A stretch of 32,000 nt of DNA from Fibrobacter succinogenes subsp. succinogenes S85 (GCF_000146505.1 NC_017448.1:1890001-1922000); one strand, 5' to 3'; shown: positions 24,150 to 32,000, counted from the first letter of the stretch. Numbers and translations: made by a program. The notes: a model not told the origin generated them from the sequence alone.

Positions 24150-24854
24150 ATGGCAACAATCAAAGAACTCAAAGCAAATGGCGCCCCGCGTTTCAAAGTC
24201 CCGGGCAAAGAAGAAATCTACGACGCATTCGACCAGTTCCTCGCAGAGAACTTCCTCGGTGAAACCGTCGAAGCCATCCCCGCAGCACCGGCCAACGGCG
24301 AATTCGCTCCGCAGGCAGTCGCCCTCTACGCCATCGCCAACACCGGCAAAGGCAACGCAGGTCTCTGGAAAGCAGGCACCGGTACGTCCTCCAAGAACTG
24401 GGACCTCAGCTTTTTGCAGGGCATCCTGAACCAGTTCTCCACCCTCCCGGCAGCCACCCGCGGCAAGACCGTTTCCGAAATCAAGGAACAGCTCGAAGAC
24501 TTCGCCTCCAAGAAGTTTGCAAAGAACCCCGCAAACGCCCGTAACGGACTTTTGCACCTCTGCAACCCGAACATCTATACCCCGATCTATTCTTTTGCAG
24601 ACAAACTCGCCATCTGCAAGGAACAGTCCCGCCTGCTTGAAGACTTCAAGCTTTCCAAGCGCTGGGACAGCGGCCTCTTGAAGCTCAAGGTATTCCGCAA
24701 GGACGGTTACGTCGCCATCCAAACCGACGAACAGCTCTGCTGGATTTTTGACAAACTCTCGACCATGCACAAAATCGAAGACGAAGAATTCGAAGTCTTC
24801 ATGAAGAACTACTTCACCGCTCCGAAAAAGAGCACCGCAAAGAAGAAGCAGTAA
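24150..24854 (+). CDS. Hypothetical 234-aa protein with a lysine-rich C-terminal tail; no family recognised
   Basis: The RBS is AAAGGAAG. GC-rich third positions match the surrounding core genes. The product runs MATIKELKANGAPRFKV...TAPKKSTAKKKQ. A strong terminator follows directly. The overlapping minus ORF 24081..24770 has G/V/F/E-rich antisense-type composition. Confidence 0.8.
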   Translation: MATIKELKANGAPRFKVPGKEEIYDAFDQFLAENFLGETVEAIPAAPANGEFAPQAVALYAIANTGKGNAGLWKAGTGTSSKNWDLSFLQGILNQFSTLPAATRGKTVSEIKEQLEDFASKKFAKNPANARNGLLHLCNPNIYTPIYSFADKLAICKEQSRLLEDFKLSKRWDSGLLKLKVFRKDGYVAIQTDEQLCWIFDKLSTMHKIEDEEFEVFMKNYFTAPKKSTAKKKQ

Positions 24855-24873
24855 TTAAATTTTCATACAGCAC

Positions 24874-24903
24874 ATCGCCCGCAATTACGCGGGCGATTTT
24901 TTG
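24874..24903 (+). terminator. Rho-independent terminator closing the recCBD/orf234 transcription unit
   Basis: A perfect 9-bp GC-rich stem ATCGCCCGC / GCGGGCGAT (24874-24882 and 24889-24897) encloses a 6-nt loop. It is followed by TTTTTT. Confidence 0.8.
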
Positions 24904-25095
24904 TATCGTTAAGCGATAACATTATTATTTTTTCACTACTATACATAAATAGACCTTATGTTTTTTCGCCTTTTTCATTGGTATATAGTGATTTAATTGA
25001 ATTTTTTCAACATCATATTTCAGCCTTATTATTTAAATAAAGTATATTAATTCTAAAAAAGCTTCATTTCTACTATTTTCAGTATTTTAAAACAT

Positions 25096-26784
25096 ATGTC
25101 CTCAAATGATAAGAAATCAAATCCTTATCTCATTTACGCTCTTGACATCAACGGAAAACCAGTACACATCGATAGCGTACCGAATGGTTTTTCCTGCAAT
25201 TGCAAATGTCCTCATTGCAGTGGTAAACTACAAGCTAAAAACGGAGGTACAGAAAGAGCCCATCATTTCGCTCATAATGATGGAGCCGATTGTAAAGGAG
25301 CGGTTGAATCAGCAATACATTGCTTGGCAAAAGAGATTTTAAAGGAATCTTTATGTGTTATGCTACCCAAGAATGCGGGTGAATTACAATTCAACAAAGT
25401 CGAAACAGAAAAGAACTTCCCTGAATTGAAGTTAAGACCTGATTGCGTTGGATATTATGGAGAAAAAACACTTTGGATTGAATTTAAACGAACTCATGAG
25501 GTTGACGTCCACAAAGCCGGCAAGATTATTTCCGCTCGCATAAATTGTATTGAAATAGATTTAAACAGTTGCGGTCAAGATAAAGAAAAATTGCGAGAAT
25601 TTATCACACAAAGTTTTGAAAATCGAAAATGGATATATAGCAGGGAACACGGAGTGGGTTCATCGGAACATACCGTTTCTAATCGTAATTCTTCCCCAAA
25701 GGTTGATTCTGAGTTAGGATTAGTAAAATTAGACCGTCATTTTGCCATAGATGATAAGGGGAAATTAATTGATTTTAGAGAGCCCTCAGAATTTGACGCA
25801 AACAAGCACTCCTATTATTGTCCATGCTGCGGAAAAGAAGTTGTGTTGAAAGTTGACGATAACGGCAGCTACACATTTGATCATATAGAAGAAACAAACA
25901 TTTGCAAAGATGAAATGTATTTAAGAAGTGCTGCTGTATCAGCCATCCAAAAGGCTTTTGAAAACTCAAAGAGTTTTATAATTCACCTTCCTCAATATCG
26001 TTCTTGCAAAAATGATAACAAATGTCCATATTATCAAGAGTGTCAAATCCCTACAACACAGCAATATGATTTAAAATCACATCATTTTGATAAATATACA
26101 AAGGATTACAAATTTAACGATGTTGCATACAGTACAGACTTAGTCCTATACAGAGAAAACATACAGAAGAACTCCATTGAAGTTCGTGTTAATACGGAAA
26201 ATTTAGAATATGGACAGAATTCTCCACGTCGCACAATTGATATCACGATATACAATGAGAACGATGTACATCAATTAAAAAAAGGATTATCCGATTACAA
26301 GAATGTTCATTTCACGAACTTCGCTCCTTACGCAGAAAAAAAAGCGGAACCCACAGAAATCAACCATAACATTTGGAAATTCATTATTTACACAAGTGGA
26401 AAAATCTATATAGGTCCTGCCAGATGTACAGAATTATCAAATTCATTTAATAATTCAAACACAATAAAAGAAGGAGCATTCATAAGAACAAACAACATTA
26501 AAGAAGATATGTACATTTTTCTTCTATTGTACTACAAAAAACTGCAAAAAGATATTTGTCGCTGTCAATTATGTTGGTCTCTAAAAAAAACAAACGGCAT
26601 TAATAACAATTACATTTGCACACGATACAAAACAAAAGGAACGCCCAAACATCCGCTGCAAGAAAAGAATCCTCCTAAAGAATGCCCTTATTTCAAAGCG
26701 GATTTCAACATTTTAAAGCGAGAAAAAGAATTGATAGAAAAAATGAAAATAGTGGAGTTTCAAAACATTCCGCAAAATAAATAA
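25096..26784 (+). CDS. 562-aa protein with two tandem zinc-ribbon plus CoiA-like PD-(D/E)xK nuclease modules and a Cys-rich C-terminal region
   Basis: Module 1 (aa ~30-156) reads C34xC36xC38PHC41...AHHFAH(55-60)...C66...ES(71-72)..H75..AKEIL...RPD116...WIE129FK131...CIEIDL. This matches the CoiA-family pattern (CPxC...HFAH...C...ES.EH...PD...E.Q/K). Module 2 (aa ~240-366) reads YYC242PC244C245GKEV...YTFDH(260-263)...C270...IHLP...STD348LVLY...IE362VR364. The tail carries C488xC490xxC493...C508...C530. The gene is very AT-rich compared with its flanks. Confidence 0.85.
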   Translation: MSSNDKKSNPYLIYALDINGKPVHIDSVPNGFSCNCKCPHCSGKLQAKNGGTERAHHFAHNDGADCKGAVESAIHCLAKEILKESLCVMLPKNAGELQFNKVETEKNFPELKLRPDCVGYYGEKTLWIEFKRTHEVDVHKAGKIISARINCIEIDLNSCGQDKEKLREFITQSFENRKWIYSREHGVGSSEHTVSNRNSSPKVDSELGLVKLDRHFAIDDKGKLIDFREPSEFDANKHSYYCPCCGKEVVLKVDDNGSYTFDHIEETNICKDEMYLRSAAVSAIQKAFENSKSFIIHLPQYRSCKNDNKCPYYQECQIPTTQQYDLKSHHFDKYTKDYKFNDVAYSTDLVLYRENIQKNSIEVRVNTENLEYGQNSPRRTIDITIYNENDVHQLKKGLSDYKNVHFTNFAPYAEKKAEPTEINHNIWKFIIYTSGKIYIGPARCTELSNSFNNSNTIKEGAFIRTNNIKEDMYIFLLLYYKKLQKDICRCQLCWSLKKTNGINNNYICTRYKTKGTPKHPLQEKNPPKECPYFKADFNILKREKELIEKMKIVEFQNIPQNK

Positions 26785-26847
26785 GAGCATCCCCTATTGC
26801 ACTCGCCATTCCAATAATCTATTTTAAAGCCAAAAGGAATACGCCAA

Positions 26848-28284
26848 ATGACTAAAGAAGAAATTTTAGCGGGAGAATCCGAAATACTCGAATTTAAGAG
26901 GGACATTCCCGAGCAGAGTATCAAGTATATGAAAACCGTTGTCGCCTTTGCCAACGGCAAAGGCGGAACAATTGTATTTGGCGTAGATGACAAAACTCGC
27001 AAGGTCGTCGGCATAAAGAAGGTCGAAGTGTTTCAAAAGGCAGATGCTATTGCTGACGCCATCTTCAATAGCTGCGAACCAAAAATCAGACCCAACATCA
27101 ACCTTCAGGAGATTGATAAAAAGTACATCATTGTTGTTACAATTCCCGTAGGCATGCAGCAACCCTACTACATAAAAAGTATGGGCATCACGGATGGAAC
27201 TTTCGTCCGTGTCGCAGCCACAACGCGTGAAGCTGAGCGTTATATGCTCAAGGAATTGGTTCTTGAAGGGAATAACGAATCATTTGACCAACAGCCCATT
27301 GGCGAAAAAGTCGCAAAAGAAGAAATCGACGAACTATGCGATAAAATTTATGATTTCACTTCATCTTCTCTGAGCAAAAAAGAACGTCTCGCTTTGCGTA
27401 GACCAACCGTCAATCAACTACAATCGTGGAAATTGCTGAAGAAAGACGGGCGATCTTTGGTAGCAACTAACGGATTTCGGCTTTTGCAGGGAAACGCCGA
27501 AGAATATTCCGATGCAAAGATTCAATGTGCGGTATTTAAAGGGACAACGCGAGGCGACTTTTTGAAGCGTCAAAATATGGAAGGTCCGATTTTTGAACAA
27601 ATTGAAGCCGCGTATCAGTTCGTAATACAAAATCTTCCTGCTCAATCCGAAGTGAAAGGGCTGTTTCGTCACGAAAAATATGCTTTGCCAGAAGCAGCGA
27701 TCCGTGAAGTTATCGCTAACGCAGTATGCCATCGCAGCTATTTGATCCCCCGAAAAATACAGGTCGCTTTGTATGACGACAGGTTGGAAGTCACATCTCC
27801 AGGAACGCTAAACAAGGATATCACATTGGAAAAAATGCGTGAGGGAATGTCAAGCGTTCGTAATAAAGGCATTGCCGAAGCGTTCATTTACATGCGTATC
27901 GTAGAAACTTGGGGTAGCGGCATTCCAAATATTTTTAAAGCCATGCAAGAATACAACTTGCCAGAACCTGAAATGCAAGATTTTCATGGCGATTTCAGAA
28001 TAACTCTTTCGTGGGACAGAAAGCTACCCAATCCTACCCAATTCCTACCCAATCCTACCCAATTCCTACCCAATCCTACCCAATATAGCGAAAAAGAGCT
28101 TTTGATTCTCCACGCCCTCAAAAATACCCCATCTATAACGCAAGGAGAACTGGCTCAATCATTGGGAATGGATACAAATCAAATAAAGTATTATCTTAAC
28201 AAACTTAAGAACGGCTCAAATCCAGCAATCCGTCACATTGGTACAACACGTAACGGATATTGGGAAGTGTTAATAGAAATCTAG
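26848..28284 (+). CDS. AlbA_2 (Schlafen-type) / HATPase_c_4 / winged-HTH protein, the family often annotated as a putative DNA-binding or RecG-like ATP-binding transcriptional regulator (478 aa)
   Basis: The N-terminus GESEILEFKRDIPEQSIKYMKTVVAFANGKGGTIVFGVDDKTRKVVGI matches the AlbA_2 pattern. The segment EAAIREVIANAVCHRSYLIPRKIQVALYDDRLEVTSPGTL...VRNKGIAEAF...VETWGSGIPNI matches the HATPase_c_4 pattern. The C-terminal wHTH is LLILHALKNTPSITQGELAQSLGMDTNQIKYYLNKLK...RNGYWEVL. The RBS is AAAGGAA. The gene starts 63 nt after the previous gene with no hairpin in between. Confidence 0.9.
   Translation: MTKEEILAGESEILEFKRDIPEQSIKYMKTVVAFANGKGGTIVFGVDDKTRKVVGIKKVEVFQKADAIADAIFNSCEPKIRPNINLQEIDKKYIIVVTIPVGMQQPYYIKSMGITDGTFVRVAATTREAERYMLKELVLEGNNESFDQQPIGEKVAKEEIDELCDKIYDFTSSSLSKKERLALRRPTVNQLQSWKLLKKDGRSLVATNGFRLLQGNAEEYSDAKIQCAVFKGTTRGDFLKRQNMEGPIFEQIEAAYQFVIQNLPAQSEVKGLFRHEKYALPEAAIREVIANAVCHRSYLIPRKIQVALYDDRLEVTSPGTLNKDITLEKMREGMSSVRNKGIAEAFIYMRIVETWGSGIPNIFKAMQEYNLPEPEMQDFHGDFRITLSWDRKLPNPTQFLPNPTQFLPNPTQYSEKELLILHALKNTPSITQGELAQSLGMDTNQIKYYLNKLKNGSNPAIRHIGTTRNGYWEVLIEI
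28024..28084 (+). repeat. Perfect 21-nt tandem repeat, 2.9 copies, in frame, encoding (L)PNPTQF repeats in the linker before the wHTH
   Basis: The unit ctacccaatcctacccaattc occurs at 28024-28044 and 28045-28065, followed by a 19-nt partial copy at 28066-28084. Each unit is itself two copies of a CCTACCCAAT(T) sub-repeat. The translation is KLPNPTQFLPNPTQFLPNPTQY. Confidence 0.95.
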
Positions 28285-28389
28285 TAGGAATAAAAAAAAT
28301 AGCTGCGTAAATTCGCAGGAAGTAGTAGGTTATGTAAAATTTTCTTACCCCTCTTGCCAGTTTTTTGGATATTAGGTACATTACATCTC

Positions 28390-28430
28390 AGCGCGTCATT
28401 CCGTAAAAAGGAATGATGCGCTTTTGCTTT
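28390..28430 (+). terminator. Rho-independent terminator for the 25096-28284 two-gene unit
   Basis: A 12-bp stem GCGCGTCATTCC / GGAATGATGCGC (28391-28402 and 28410-28421, one G-U pair) encloses a 7-nt loop. It is followed by TTTTGCTTT. Confidence 0.7.
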
Positions 28431-28490
28431 ATTTGGCTTTGCCATATTGCAAGGGCGCTCCCAGCAAAAATAATAAACACAGGAGACCCT

Positions 28491-29330
28491 ATGACTAAAA
28501 AAGAAGTTACCACTTATTCTCAGCAGACGTTTGAAAAACTCAAGCACATTGATGAAAACGGGAATGAATTTTGGTACGCAAGAGAACTGCAAAAAGCCTT
28601 AGAATATACCGAATATGGCAAGTTTCTACCTGTGATAGAAAAGGCTATCGAAGCATGTCGGAAAACTGGCTTTGATGAGGGAAACCATTTCGCCCACGTG
28701 AGCGAGATGGTCAGAATCGGAAGCGGAGCAGAAAGAAAAATGGATAGCTACAAACTTTCCCGTTACGCTTGCTACCTGATTGTAATGAACGGGGACCCTC
28801 GCAAAGAAGTAATCGCTCTTGGACAAACATATTTCGCTGTTAAAACTCGTCAAAAGGAAATTTCTGATGAAGTCGCACAACTTTCGGAAGATGAAAAACG
28901 CCTAGCCATCCGTGACGAAGTAACGATTCGCAATAAATTCCTTGCCAGCTCCGCAAAAGCTGCCGGCGTCGAAACGCCCGTGGATTATGCTGTATTTCAG
29001 AATCGTGGATATCAGGGTCTTTATAACGGCTTGGGAATGAAGGATATCCACAAACGCAAAGGACTTAAGAAAAACGAACAAATACTGGACCACATGGGAG
29101 CTACAGAGCTTGCTGCAAATCTTTTCCGCATTACACAAACCGACGACAAACTCCGTCGTGAAAACATCAAGGGAAAAGAATTGGCAAATGAAACACATTT
29201 TGCCGTGGGCAAGAAAGTTCGCCAAACTATTGCTGAACTTGGCGGAACAATGCCAGAAAACCTACCCACTCCCAAGATCAGTGCCAAAAAGTTGAAACAG
29301 GAACGCAAGAAAGCCATTGCGAAGAAATAA
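28491..29330 (+). CDS. dinD: DNA-damage-inducible protein D homologue (279 aa)
   Basis: An AGGAG RBS lies at 28481-28485. The product resembles E. coli DinD, as I remember it, over its full length: NGNEFWYARELQKALEYTEYGKFLPVIEKAIEAC, KLSRYACYLIVMNGDPRKEVIALGQTYFAVKTR, FQNRGYQGLYNGLGMKDIHKRKGLKKNEQILDHMGATELAANLFRITQT, VGKKVRQTIAELGGTMPENLPTP. The track start at 28413 lies inside the upstream terminator, so I rejected it. Confidence 0.9.
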   Translation: MTKKEVTTYSQQTFEKLKHIDENGNEFWYARELQKALEYTEYGKFLPVIEKAIEACRKTGFDEGNHFAHVSEMVRIGSGAERKMDSYKLSRYACYLIVMNGDPRKEVIALGQTYFAVKTRQKEISDEVAQLSEDEKRLAIRDEVTIRNKFLASSAKAAGVETPVDYAVFQNRGYQGLYNGLGMKDIHKRKGLKKNEQILDHMGATELAANLFRITQTDDKLRRENIKGKELANETHFAVGKKVRQTIAELGGTMPENLPTPKISAKKLKQERKKAIAKK

Positions 29331-29594
29331 CAAATCTCGCCAAAAGAGTTCCCATTTCATTTTGACGCACCGATTGTTTCACTAGCGAAACACCGACCGT
29401 CACTTTCTGAAATACCAACTTCGCTTGCGCCCATTCAATCGCATTTTTCAGCCACCCGCGCACACATTTTTGCACTTTTTTCGCCGTCCCACCCACCAAA
29501 AACCGCATTTTTTCATCAAATTTCGCCATTTTTGCAATTTTCGCCATCACCTCACAAAAAAAATTTTCTGCGTAACTCTCAAAATCGAAAAAGT

Positions 29595-29610
29595 TGGCAC
29601 GGCTTTAGCT
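29595..29610 (+). promoter_or_regulatory. Candidate sigma-54 (-24/-12) promoter upstream of hsp20
   Basis: The sequence TGGCACGgcttTAGCT compares with the consensus TGGCACG-N4-TTGCW. The GG (29596-97) and GC (29608-09) are spaced correctly, with one mismatch (TTGC to TAGC). The site lies about 70 nt upstream of the hsp20 ATG. Confidence 0.4.
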
Positions 29611-29678
29611 TAAGGTAGGGTGTAAAACAAAAGGGCCAACGGTAAACGCCGAGCCCGCAACAAAAAGAGGTTAAAATT

Positions 29679-30056
29679 ATGATGAACACACAGATCCTTC
29701 CGAACGCTTTCTATGGTATCCAGAACTTCATTGACAGCTTGAACGCCGCAAACGCACAGGGCGAAAGCACCTACACGCCGAAGGCTGACTACTACGAAAC
29801 CGAAGGCGGCTTTGCTCTCGAAGTCGAACTTCCGGGTGTCAAGAAAGAAGACATGGACATCCAGGTCGAAAAGAATATCTTGACGGTCAAGGCTACCCGC
29901 GCACGCAAGGACGAAAAGTTCACTTACGAACGTAGCTTCCGCTTGGCCGACGATATCGATACCGACAACATTAAAGTCTCCTTGGAAAACGGTATCCTGA
30001 AATTCGATCTCTCCAAGAAAGCTCAGGCCGCAGCCCGCAAGATTACCATCGCCTAA
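29679..30056 (+). CDS. Small heat-shock protein, Hsp20/alpha-crystallin family (125 aa)
   Basis: The alpha-crystallin domain reads ADYYETEGGFALEVELPGVKKEDMDIQVEKNILTVKA...FTYERSFRLADDID...IKVSLENGILKFDLSKK. An AAGAGG RBS lies upstream. Confidence 0.9.
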   Translation: MMNTQILPNAFYGIQNFIDSLNAANAQGESTYTPKADYYETEGGFALEVELPGVKKEDMDIQVEKNILTVKATRARKDEKFTYERSFRLADDIDTDNIKVSLENGILKFDLSKKAQAAARKITIA

Positions 30057-30206: not shown

Positions 30207-30236
30207 GTAATTTCACATTCCATATAAAGGATTCTT

Positions 30237-31385
30237 ATGAAAAAAAATAAGAAACCGGTAATTCTCATTACTGGGTATTTGGGTTCTGGCAAAACGACAC
30301 TTTTAAACAATATTCTCAAGCAAGAGAAGCGAAAAGTCGCCCTCATCGTGAATGATATGGGCAGCATCAACGTTGATGCCGAAATTTTAAAGAAGAACGG
30401 TTCAAATGTCACCGAATGTCCAATGTTTGAATTGCAAAACGGTTGCATTTGCTGCACTCTGCGCGATGAATTCATTCAGCAAATCGAGAAGATTTCCAAT
30501 CTTGATTCTATCGAAGTCGTATTTGTTGAAGCCTCCGGCATCAGTGACCCCGGCGCCGTCAGCGCAAGCTTCCTCGCCTACGAAGATGAAAATCCCAACA
30601 CGAACGTTTACTTAACTTCCATCGTCACGGTGGTCGATGCCGACCGTATTTACCGAGAATTTCTGAGCGACCTCAAGCTCAGAAAAGACGAAATGTTTAA
30701 CGACATCGAACTTTCTCAAGAAGAAATATCAACGCTTATTGTTGACCAGATTGAATTTTGCAACTTCATCGCCTTGAACAAATGCGATTTGCTCAGCGAA
30801 GACCAACTGAAAGAAGTGGAATCCATCGTACGTGATTTCCAGACTCGCGCCCCGATCATCCGCTCGGTCAACGCCGAAATTGACATTGACAAGATTATGA
30901 CGAAAAAGCCGTTCAACTACGGGCAAATAGACTCCTCGTCCGCAATCCAGAAGGCCATGGAAAGCCTAAAAAACCCCAGCCGTTCAAGCAGCGGTTGCGT
31001 TGATGAATACGGAATTTCTTCATTTGTCTTTGAAGCCCGCAAACCGTTCAACAGAGAACGCTTCATGGAATTTGTAAACAACCGCTACCCCACACAGCTC
31101 ATCCGTTCCAAGGGCTACATCTGGTTCTCGGACTGCAGCCGCGACGTGCAACTTTTTGAACAGGCAGGTCGCAATTCGTCAGTAATGCCAGTTTCATATT
31201 GGATCGATGCACTCCAGGAAGACGTAAAGCAATCCTATATTGCAAGCAATCCCGAGCTCAAGGAAAACTGGGATTCCCGATTTGGCGACCGAGAAAACCA
31301 GGTCGTATTCATCGGAAGGGGCTACAACAAGGACGAGATCATGCTCGAACTTGAAAAGTGCCTGGACGAGCGGGCGATCGCCTAG
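30237..31385 (+). CDS. COG0523/CobW-family G3E GTPase, a putative zinc metallochaperone (382 aa)
   Basis: The P-loop is ILITGYLGSGKTTLLNNIL and the metal-binding motif is GCICCTLRDE. Other family motifs are VFVEASGISDP and ALNKCDL. A CobW C-terminal-like region is present. The RBS is AAAGGA. Confidence 0.9.
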   Translation: MKKNKKPVILITGYLGSGKTTLLNNILKQEKRKVALIVNDMGSINVDAEILKKNGSNVTECPMFELQNGCICCTLRDEFIQQIEKISNLDSIEVVFVEASGISDPGAVSASFLAYEDENPNTNVYLTSIVTVVDADRIYREFLSDLKLRKDEMFNDIELSQEEISTLIVDQIEFCNFIALNKCDLLSEDQLKEVESIVRDFQTRAPIIRSVNAEIDIDKIMTKKPFNYGQIDSSSAIQKAMESLKNPSRSSSGCVDEYGISSFVFEARKPFNRERFMEFVNNRYPTQLIRSKGYIWFSDCSRDVQLFEQAGRNSSVMPVSYWIDALQEDVKQSYIASNPELKENWDSRFGDRENQVVFIGRGYNKDEIMLELEKCLDERAIA

Positions 31386-31394
31386 TGGCATACT

Positions 31395-31409
31395 TGACAA
31401 TCATTCTCA
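31395..31409. promoter_or_regulatory. Second, shorter Fur-family-box-like palindrome upstream of the Fur-family gene
   Basis: The sequence TGAcAATcATTcTCA has symmetric TGA.AAT.ATT.TCA arms. It overlaps a TTGACA hexamer (31394-31399) and lies about 47 nt upstream of ATG 31456. Confidence 0.3.
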
Positions 31410-31455
31410 AATTGACTAAATTTCAATTTGGGAATGAATTGCATTTTCAAAGGCA

Positions 31456-31866
31456 ATGGTGAAAATGGTTAAAACGGAATACAAAACACAGACTCGCCAG
31501 ATGATTCTGGACTATATGGTCAAAAATCCTGACCGTATTTTCAAGGCTTCCGAAATTGCACAAAGTCTGCCCGATGTTTCGTTGAGCACCATCTACCGCA
31601 ATTTGGCAAGGCTTGAAGAAGCAGGAATGGTGCAAATCGTTGGAGCCGAAAAGAACAACGAACTTCAATACCGCTATACAGGCCCGGGCCGCTGCGCCTC
31701 CAAGATGCACCTCGTCTGCAAAGACTGCGGAAAGTTTTTTCATCTGGAAGGTCCCGCGCTCCGCCTTTTGCAGCATTCCATTGAACGCCTGAATGGCTTC
31801 ATTCTTGACCAGCAGCAATCGGTTTTACTCGGCCATTGCGCCGTTTGCAGCAGACAAAGGAAATAA
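31456..31866 (+). CDS. Fur-family metalloregulator, probably Zur given the COG0523 neighbour (136 aa; alternative start at 31465)
   Basis: The wHTH is FKASEIAQSLPDVSLSTIYRNLARLEEAGMV. The two Cys pairs typical of the family's structural zinc site are present (CKDCGKFFH and HCAVCS). Confidence 0.85.
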   Translation: MVKMVKTEYKTQTRQMILDYMVKNPDRIFKASEIAQSLPDVSLSTIYRNLARLEEAGMVQIVGAEKNNELQYRYTGPGRCASKMHLVCKDCGKFFHLEGPALRLLQHSIERLNGFILDQQQSVLLGHCAVCSRQRK

Positions 31867-32000
31867 ATTGTTCCATTTATTTGACAAGTTGGTGGTAGCG
31901 ATAGCGCTCTTTTACGCAGAGCACCGCACAGAACATCATTGTCATGGCGAGCATTGCCACGTCTGCCACCACATCCACCATTGTCTGGATATCATTTCAG

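Follow-up and report, generated by a model that had tools for sequence, protein, structure and literature searches.

Three probably autonomous cassettes, among them a candidate tandem CoiA-like nuclease gene, in a chromosomal defence hotspot of Fibrobacter succinogenes S85

What is the AT-rich block of genes that lies directly downstream of recCBD in Fibrobacter succinogenes S85, and do its genes act together? We examined a 32,000-nucleotide stretch of this genome (CP001792.1; hereafter the window, with positions counted from its first letter) in which the + strand carries, in order, recC, recB, recD, orf234 (24150-24854; 234 aa), a terminator, geneA (25096-26784; 562 aa), geneB (26848-28284; 478 aa), a second terminator, dinD (28491-29330; 279 aa), hsp20 (29679-30056), a cobW-like gene and a fur/zur-like gene. 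A first-pass annotation, made from the sequence alone, had set geneA, geneB and dinD apart as one insert (24904-29340) and had read geneA and geneB as a nuclease and a Schlafen-type ATPase forming a single defence or abortive-infection module. Our comparisons indicate that the insert is probably not one system but three autonomous, separately shuffled single-gene cassettes lodged in a defence hotspot.

We collected 51 related loci (here and below, loci are numbered with the prefix L) by exact look-ups of the Hsp20 and Orf234 proteins and by a metagenome scan with Orf234; 41 of them extend far enough downstream to be informative about slot content. The empty site that had been predicted, with orf234 abutting hsp20, exists in related strains. 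In L082, the flanks of which are 98% identical to those of S85, homology ends at 24866 and restarts at 29351, with only the terminator and ~15 nt between them. The insert is also absent from L070 and L072 (88-95% identical), where homology ends at 24909 and restarts at 29325, and from L066, L067, L096, L097, L115, L120 and L122. These ten loci place the strain-specific 4.4-kb insert at ~24910 to 29324-29350 (taken here as 24910-29330), essentially where it was first drawn. Across the 41 informative loci the slot is empty in 10, holds dinD alone in 4 (among them L080, L086 and L114) and carries other cargo in 27; geneA occupies it in none (0/41). The alternative cargo includes a type ISP/IIG restriction-modification (RM) enzyme (L083), type I RM (L079 and L103), type II RM with PDC-S05 (L098), a prokaryotic Argonaute with an OGG-like gene (L119), an HKD+Snf2 protein (L105) and an MzaB-like protein (L091).

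Conserved flanks, empty sites and alternative defence cargo together show that F. succinogenes and related strains have a chromosomal defence hotspot in the slot bounded by the terminator of orf234 and the promoter of hsp20, and the S85 block is, as originally suspected, a defence-type insert that is strain-specific and horizontally shuffled. Chromosomal defence hotspots between conserved core genes have been described for the pan-genomes of E. coli and Pseudomonas, and we found no description of this one in Fibrobacter. The Fibrobacter slot shares with those hotspots its conserved flanks, empty sites, varied defence cargo, deviant GC and mosaic content, but it differs in having no integrase or mobile-element backbone and in the cassette leaders and a 47-nt hairpin element that recur at cassette borders. 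The slot maps a defence hotspot in an under-studied phylum, in a key cellulose degrader of the rumen, and slots of this kind are productive places for finding new defence genes.

The left edge of the slot is formed by the conserved terminator-like hairpin of orf234 (24874-24897, + strand), and homology to relatives stops there at 24902-24909. The drop in GC content that had been noticed downstream of this hairpin rested on six hand counts, all of them exact, but only geneA and its leader of 198 nt (24898-25095, + strand; GC 0.21) show it sharply, the drop in geneB and dinD being mild. By gene, GC is 0.345 for geneA, 0.426 for geneB and 0.435 for dinD versus 0.46-0.54 for flanking genes, and GC at third codon positions (GC3) is 0.30, 0.42 and 0.41 versus 0.56-0.72. 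The insert as a whole has a GC of 0.385, and windows of geneA length outside it never fall below 0.426 (mean 0.473, sd 0.0185).

A scan of open reading frames (ORFs) agreed with the annotation that the insert carries no methyltransferase, integrase or transposase gene, and no tRNA gene was found in it either. Target-site duplications, terminal inverted repeats and Rfam families were sought at and within the insert and none was found, so that the hallmarks of an integrative mobile element (integrase or transposase, tRNA or att site, flanking direct repeats) are absent from it. The S85 insert is the current occupant of the orf234-hsp20 hotspot, and we propose that cargo is gained, replaced and eroded there, most likely via recombination through the conserved flanks, because the insert is accompanied by neither an integrase nor a transposase gene and by no tRNA gene, Rfam family or flanking repeat.

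Remnants of geneB persist at the slot in L087, L080 and L114 (from 28055, within a tandem repeat) and in L066 (66 nt), and their presence in otherwise emptied sites points to past occupancy followed by erosion. The 66-nt piece, which is 88% identical to positions 27949-28014 of geneB and is retained in the more distant relatives L066 (9459-9523) and L067 (9494-9558), is a fossil of past geneB-like occupancy. The repeat in question consists of 21-nt units inside geneB (28024-28095, + strand; encoding LPNPTQF x3) and forms the linker between the ATPase domain and the C-terminal winged helix-turn-helix (wHTH). It coincides both with the remnant end point at 28055 in L087, L080 and L114 and with breaks in the short-read assemblies L056 and L068.

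The evidence that the three genes travel separately comes from where homology to other loci starts and stops, and from their differing GC. Shared stretches run from 25100/25111 to 26759 for geneA, from 26773/26791 to 28281 for geneB and from 28333/28355 to 29330 for dinD, and the break between the first two falls within 13 nt around the geneA stop codon. Other Fibrobacter loci that share the first stretch with the window have geneA alone, and the AT-rich leader upstream of it is not common to them, their homology beginning at 25100-25111. The second unit is a cassette (26773-28284, + strand) made of a 75-nt leader and the geneB coding sequence (CDS), and it occurs without geneA: L075 shares 26773-28281 at 91% DNA identity behind a RelA_SpoT gene, L083 shares DNA from 26791 onward at 93% identity behind unrelated genes for 824-aa and 247-aa proteins, and copies at 73% identity come after YhcG and Metallophos genes. 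The third unit (28333-29330, + strand) comprises the terminator-like hairpin at 28390-28422, a ribosome-binding site (RBS) and the dinD CDS; its homology stops at the dinD stop codon, and it is found alone at the slot or in other islands (L001, L002 and L033).

A 47-nt element with a hairpin and T-tract (GTCATTCCGTAAAAAGGAATGATGCGCTTTTGCTTTATTTGG; window 28395-28441) recurs, ~96% identical, at other Fibrobacter cassette borders, with or without dinD (L004 12498-12544, L033 15130-15176 and L117 624-761), and could be a conserved element of cassette boundaries or leaders. L117 has a 520-aa AlbA_2-like ORF, and not dinD, behind the dinD leader (28355-28493).

What is new among the three cassettes is the geneA family, which is uncharacterised, has a tandem CoiA-like architecture and, judged from its sequence, is plausibly a single-gene defence nuclease. 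The protein matches CoiA_N (PF25164) twice (E 2.5e-10, 40 bits vs a cutoff of 26.3), as do all of the 29 family sequences over which we counted conservation, but the CoiA nuclease domain PF06054 was matched by none of the 29 at E<=0.1, and we therefore rejected geneA as a CoiA orthologue. Module 1 (aa 9-190; 25120-25665, + strand) combines a C/H zinc ribbon (C34, C36, C38, C41, H56, H60 and C66) with a PD-ExK core in which all 29 sequences keep E71, D116, E129 and K131, the last three being residues that had been singled out from the sequence at the start. Module 2 (aa 209-470; 25720-26505, + strand) has a duplicated ribbon (C242, C245, H263 and C270) and a PD-like core in which D348 and R379 do not vary, and hhalign joins the two halves at E 2.4e-5 with D116 placed onto D348. 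Its ExK position is not conserved, which indicates that the second module is degenerate; the tandem architecture implied by the description of a double CoiA-like nuclease thus holds, but not the second active site. A C-terminal domain (26506-26763, + strand) with a RYKTKGTP motif and five invariant cysteines (C488, C490, C493, C508 and C530) is likely to bind nucleic acid or a metal cluster.

The AlphaFold model of geneA, which is confident (pLDDT 82), has predicted strands that fit a PD-(D/E)xK site, and its weak, insignificant fold matches in the PDB are all to PD-(D/E)xK nucleases. In BFVD, the model has significant matches, one of them to a phage protein named 'Competence protein' (E 7e-6), and a search of PDB sequences with the geneA profile gave no match at E<=1. 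About 218 close relatives are found in Fibrobacter (57-72% identity) and in gut Bacteroidales/Prevotella (36-41%). A wider profile search recovered 7,764 cluster representatives; a few dozen are full-length tandem proteins and most have the N-terminal module alone. The module is carried by 78 plasmids as well, one of them a small Psychrobacter plasmid with a recombinase gene next to it. The family is compact and, in its N-terminal module, widespread. Literature searches on DUF7828, DUF7830 and PF25164 found nothing relevant. Of the two genes, the pairing of which had not been recognised as any named system, geneA is undescribed, but the architecture of geneB has already been catalogued. Gene calls of 78 aa and 474 aa that split geneA in L056/L057 are an artefact of gene calling, the L056 DNA being 100% identical to the window.

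We examined the neighbourhoods of geneA homologues at 54 genome loci, which a search with the profile of the family had recovered, and on five extra contigs (L128-L132), and counted the 112 genes that lie no more than two positions from geneA at 32 loci. At these 32 loci the neighbours are rich in YhcG/PDC-S02, NERD, SLFN-g3 helicase/PDC-S41 and Mokosh-like helicase genes, as well as in Gabija-like genes, PglX-like genes and GmrSD. The homologues closest to geneA (70-72% identity) lie in L128-L132, where NERD comes first, followed by geneA, a 108-aa ORF, RAMA/DUF4357, YhcG and a 196-aa ORF, with a distant AlbA_2/HATPase_c_4/MarR gene last, 3.7 kb from geneA; the island is large and also holds PglX-like, Gabija-like, PLD and GmrSD genes. 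Stand-alone predicted PD-(D/E)xK nuclease genes inside RM or defence islands are a feature that geneA shares with YhcG/DUF1016 (PDC-S02) and NERD, the commonest immediate upstream neighbours of its homologues (gaps 0-10 nt), but neither has any sequence kinship to geneA, and the S85 gene adjoins neither.

Tight same-strand arrays around geneA homologues are seen in other Fibrobacter genomes, in L128 (7046-10012), L132 (2190-5152), L033 (6666-9624) and L001 (8889-12014), with NERD (gap ~10 nt) or YhcG (stop/start overlap) upstream and a conserved 108-aa ORF of no matched family downstream (gap 14-45 nt). In the Bacteroidales loci L011, L019, L024 and L027, a NERD+Zn_ribbon_Top1 gene lies ~5 nt upstream of the geneA homologue. 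The NERD or YhcG genes and the 108-aa ORF may be optional partners of geneA, and none of them is present in S85. In Afipia (L049-L051, 10001-18400), the genes behind single-module relatives of ~420 aa form a conserved array that encodes a SIR2_2-like protein, a 190-aa protein, an SMC-like AAA ATPase and an nSTAND3 NTPase, which is another defence-type context for the N-terminal module.

How might such a protein work? As a predicted Zn-ribbon/PD-ExK DNA endonuclease, geneA would cut DNA with its intact first module (E71/D116/E129/K131), and the degenerate module together with the Cys-rich tail would bind or sense nucleic acid and gate the first; on this view the protein would act on its own, as a restriction-like or abortive nuclease. 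We tentatively suggest, as a proposal that could well prove wrong, that the geneA family (~555 aa; tandem CoiA-like modules with the second degenerate; five-Cys domain) makes up a new nuclease system of Fibrobacter and gut Bacteroidales in which one gene acts against phages or plasmids; the dead module and the Cys domain would sense or bind the invader and gate the live module, and in other genomes a tightly linked NERD or YhcG gene would be a partner and, in Fibrobacter, the 108-aa protein a possible inhibitor.

A nuclease of this kind might alternatively serve a mobile element, in homing, addiction or competition between plasmids or integrative conjugative elements, and not be a host anti-phage gene. 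The occurrence of the N-terminal module on the 78 plasmids, one of them with the neighbouring recombinase, would fit such a role, as would the VapE-like/primase and antirepressor genes among the geneA neighbours, the occurrence of the fold in phage proteins, and the 108-aa ORF tightly behind geneA in other Fibrobacter loci, which could be an immunity partner. However, the S85 gene has no integrase, transposase or repeats with it, a tblastn search of 50,697 phage genomes with geneA gave no match, and the neighbours of geneA homologues are mostly of defence type and not mobility genes. We consider selfish service unlikely, though it fares best among the alternatives.

Could geneA and geneB nevertheless form one operonic defence or abortive-infection system, with geneA as effector nuclease, geneB as Schlafen-type sensor ATPase and possibly dinD as a third member? 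The two genes lie on the same strand with a gap of 63 nt that, as had been noted, contains no hairpin or other terminator-like site on the + strand, and they have the terminator at 28390-28422 in common. However, an AlbA_2 gene adjoins a geneA homologue at 0/54 genome loci and on 0/5 extra contigs, none of the 112 close neighbours is an AlbA_2 gene, and the two genes are adjacent in S85 only. The other upstream contexts of geneB and the homology break between the genes speak against the pairing too, and prokaryotic Schlafens (pSlfns), the class to which geneB belongs by its predicted domains, are described as single-gene systems (PMC13056530). A working pair is thus very improbable, and the idea is already largely refuted by the comparative data. 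Of the outcomes by which the annotation had proposed to judge its claim, one went against the pairing, the two genes never being adjacent elsewhere, and one went in favour of a defence context, the neighbours being predominantly of defence type. The two genes may well be co-transcribed in S85, as an accident of cassette order and not as a functional pairing; adjacency and a shared terminator in one genome do not define a system.

Several points weigh against the reading of the insert as three autonomous defence cassettes. The 63-nt gap without a terminator permits co-transcription of geneA and geneB, the islands of L002, L033 and L128-130 each have a distant AlbA_2/HATPase_c_4 gene, 1.7-3.7 kb away from geneA, and a loose association of the two gene types in Fibrobacter islands may exist. 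For geneA, there was no match in PADLOC v2 or NCBIfam, Foldseek found no PDB match for the whole model at E<=1e-3, the nuclease activity is predicted from motif conservation and weak fold matches, and our neighbour survey had no matched control for defence enrichment. For geneB, the two HisKinase-fused pSlfns that were assayed in E. coli, neither of them of HisKinase-HTH type, did not protect (PMC13056530). For dinD, PDC-S13, the PADLOC family that it matches, is a candidate family only, and a defence role of the gene is a prediction. More generally, the biochemical activities and the defence phenotype are predictions for all three genes.

Another possibility raised by the position next to recCBD is that geneA belongs to the CoiA type of recombination nucleases, with a housekeeping or accessory role in which it processes D-loops in transformation, or that it is a repair factor linked to RecBCD. 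CoiA itself combines a C2H2 zinc finger with a PD-(D/E)xK domain and acts in D-loop resolution during natural transformation (bioRxiv 10.1101/2024.02.06.579203). The CoiA_N match in every family member and a PD-ExK core that fits this description are as expected of such a protein, and dinD lies alongside and recCBD immediately upstream. Both proteins have an N-terminal zinc ribbon (PF25164) followed by a PD-(D/E)xK core with conserved D and ExK, and the phage 'Competence protein' model has the fold of geneA. Unlike CoiA, however, geneA lacks PF06054, has a duplicated module with a degenerate second copy and an extra Cys-rich C-terminal domain, is strain-specific, AT-rich and situated within defence islands, and occurs in Fibrobacter/Bacteroidales and not in the competence regulons of Firmicutes. 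Neither the 98%-identical strain nor any of the 41 informative loci of the hotspot has the gene, its GC3 is half of the ~0.6 of core genes, and a strain-specific position among defence-type genes speaks against a role in competence. Nor do recB or recD ever lie near geneA homologues elsewhere, and several orf234 loci (e.g. L097, L103 and L119) have no recD upstream. The link to RecBCD that had been suggested does not survive this comparison: the adjacency is a property of the slot and not of the genes, and is coincidental. A recombination or repair role is, if anything, slightly less credible than the geneA-geneB pair.

The domains first assigned to geneB were borne out by Pfam, with SLFN_AlbA_2 (PF04326; 26875-27234) scoring 91.2 bits against a cutoff of 25.3, HATPase_c_4 (27754-28008) 86.5 bits and HTH_24 (wHTH; 28090-28212) 29 bits, all on the + strand. 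Its structural model matches PDB 3lmm (DIP2311, of unknown function) over the full length (E 3e-23). The N-terminal fold matches SLFN14/11/13/5 and the SAMD9 tRNase (E 1e-6 to 1e-4), the middle matches histidine-kinase ATP-binding (CA) domains, and the tail matches MarR/ArsR folds. In a profile alignment to SLFN13 (chain 5yd0), E10, E15 and D48 of geneB fall on the E/E/D positions of that protein, which we take to be its catalytic acidic triad. Among 31 geneB sequences, E10 and E15 are present in all and position 48 is D in 21 and N in 10; the GHKL N-box residues E287/N291 and the glycines G356/G358 are conserved as well. The acidic residues reported for RorSlfn5 are E15/D20 (PMC13056530).

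By this predicted composition geneB is a pSlfn of HisKinase-HTH type, in a recently named class of single-gene effector-sensor fusions (Perez Taboada et al., Nat Microbiol 2026, PMC13056530). HisKinase-HTH is the second most common pSlfn architecture (19.2%), 69.6% of pSlfns lie near defence genes, and the validated members are RorSlfn5, with an Ig-like sensor, and EcoSlfn7, with DUF262 (PMC13056530). With this class geneB shares a Schlafen/AlbA_2 domain with acidic residues, a GHKL domain, a C-terminal wHTH and a defence-hotspot setting, but RorSlfn5 and EcoSlfn7 carry other sensor domains. It appears, then, to be a natural, intact pSlfn of an abundant but unvalidated type. By analogy with characterised pSlfns, geneB would be a nuclease that needs Mn and cuts tRNA or RNA, restrained by a sensor part made of its GHKL-ATPase and wHTH. 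The least likely reading of all is that geneB is a constant sensor or regulator for whichever variable AT-rich gene sits upstream: its partners do differ (geneA in S85, the 824-aa and 247-aa genes in L083, RelA_SpoT in L075 and Metallophos in L076) and all four lie on the same strand at short gaps beside geneB copies 73-98% identical, but geneB has its own 57-75-nt leader in each context, the 551-aa gene of L085 is joined to a truncated geneB from 27739, the remnants in L087, L080 and L114 are plain erosion, and pSlfn proteins already hold effector and sensor parts (PMC13056530). We also rejected L085 as a second 'effector + geneB' pair, geneB there being that 3' fragment.

The third cassette encodes a Bro-N/DinD protein that falls into PDC-S13, a candidate family of PADLOC. 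The protein matches NF008573 at equivalog level over its full length (393 bits vs a cutoff of 242) and PDC-S13 (PDLC04919) at E 1.7e-114 (2-270/281), and it has a Bro-N domain. Its start, the ATG at 28491 behind AGGAGA, agrees with the RBS of its own that had been assigned to it. DinD-type genes occur inside type I RM loci, and in L079 one lies within type I RM cargo; the full-length match, Bro-N domain and type I RM association are shared with E. coli DinD (NF008573) and PDC-S13. PDC-S13 is not discussed in the papers searched.

Several smaller features of the slot were seen along the way. In L070, L072 (~1452-1556) and L082 (10708-10815), the stop codon of orf234 is separated from the terminator by a GC-rich insertion of 103 bp that contains hairpins (GTGTCATCCTGACGCGAAGCGG...GGGGCTTGCCCCATCCAGTTA), at a point between window positions 24866 and 24867; it is absent from S85 and may be a miniature inverted-repeat transposable element (MITE)- or repetitive extragenic palindromic (REP)-like element. 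Several short-read contigs (L058-L064) also break at this point. The AT-rich 824-aa protein (GC 0.31-0.34) recurs as hotspot cargo beside RM genes (L083 6481-8955 and L103 17299-19773), and neither it nor the product of the 247-aa ORF behind it in L083 has a match in Pfam or PADLOC. In L085 (8533-10188), the position that geneA has in S85 is occupied by the gene for a 551-aa protein (GC 0.29) with hydrophobic C-terminal segments and no family match, fused onto the truncated geneB remnant.

To the right of the insert, the conserved flank (29331-30056, + strand) comprises the hsp20 upstream region and hsp20. The upstream region contains, at 29460-29545, repeated CATTTTTGCA(A/C)TTTT / TTTCGCCATTTTTGCAA motifs, which may be regulatory sites of hsp20. 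A minus-strand ORF of 89 aa (29278-29547) overlaps the end of dinD and is probably spurious. Further downstream, the genes for the cobW-like GTPase and the fur/zur-like regulator (30213-31878) form a second indel: the pair is present in L082 and absent from L066, L067, L070, L072, L080, L086 and L087, in which znuA comes straight after hsp20, and it looks like strain-variable zinc-homeostasis cargo beside znuABC.

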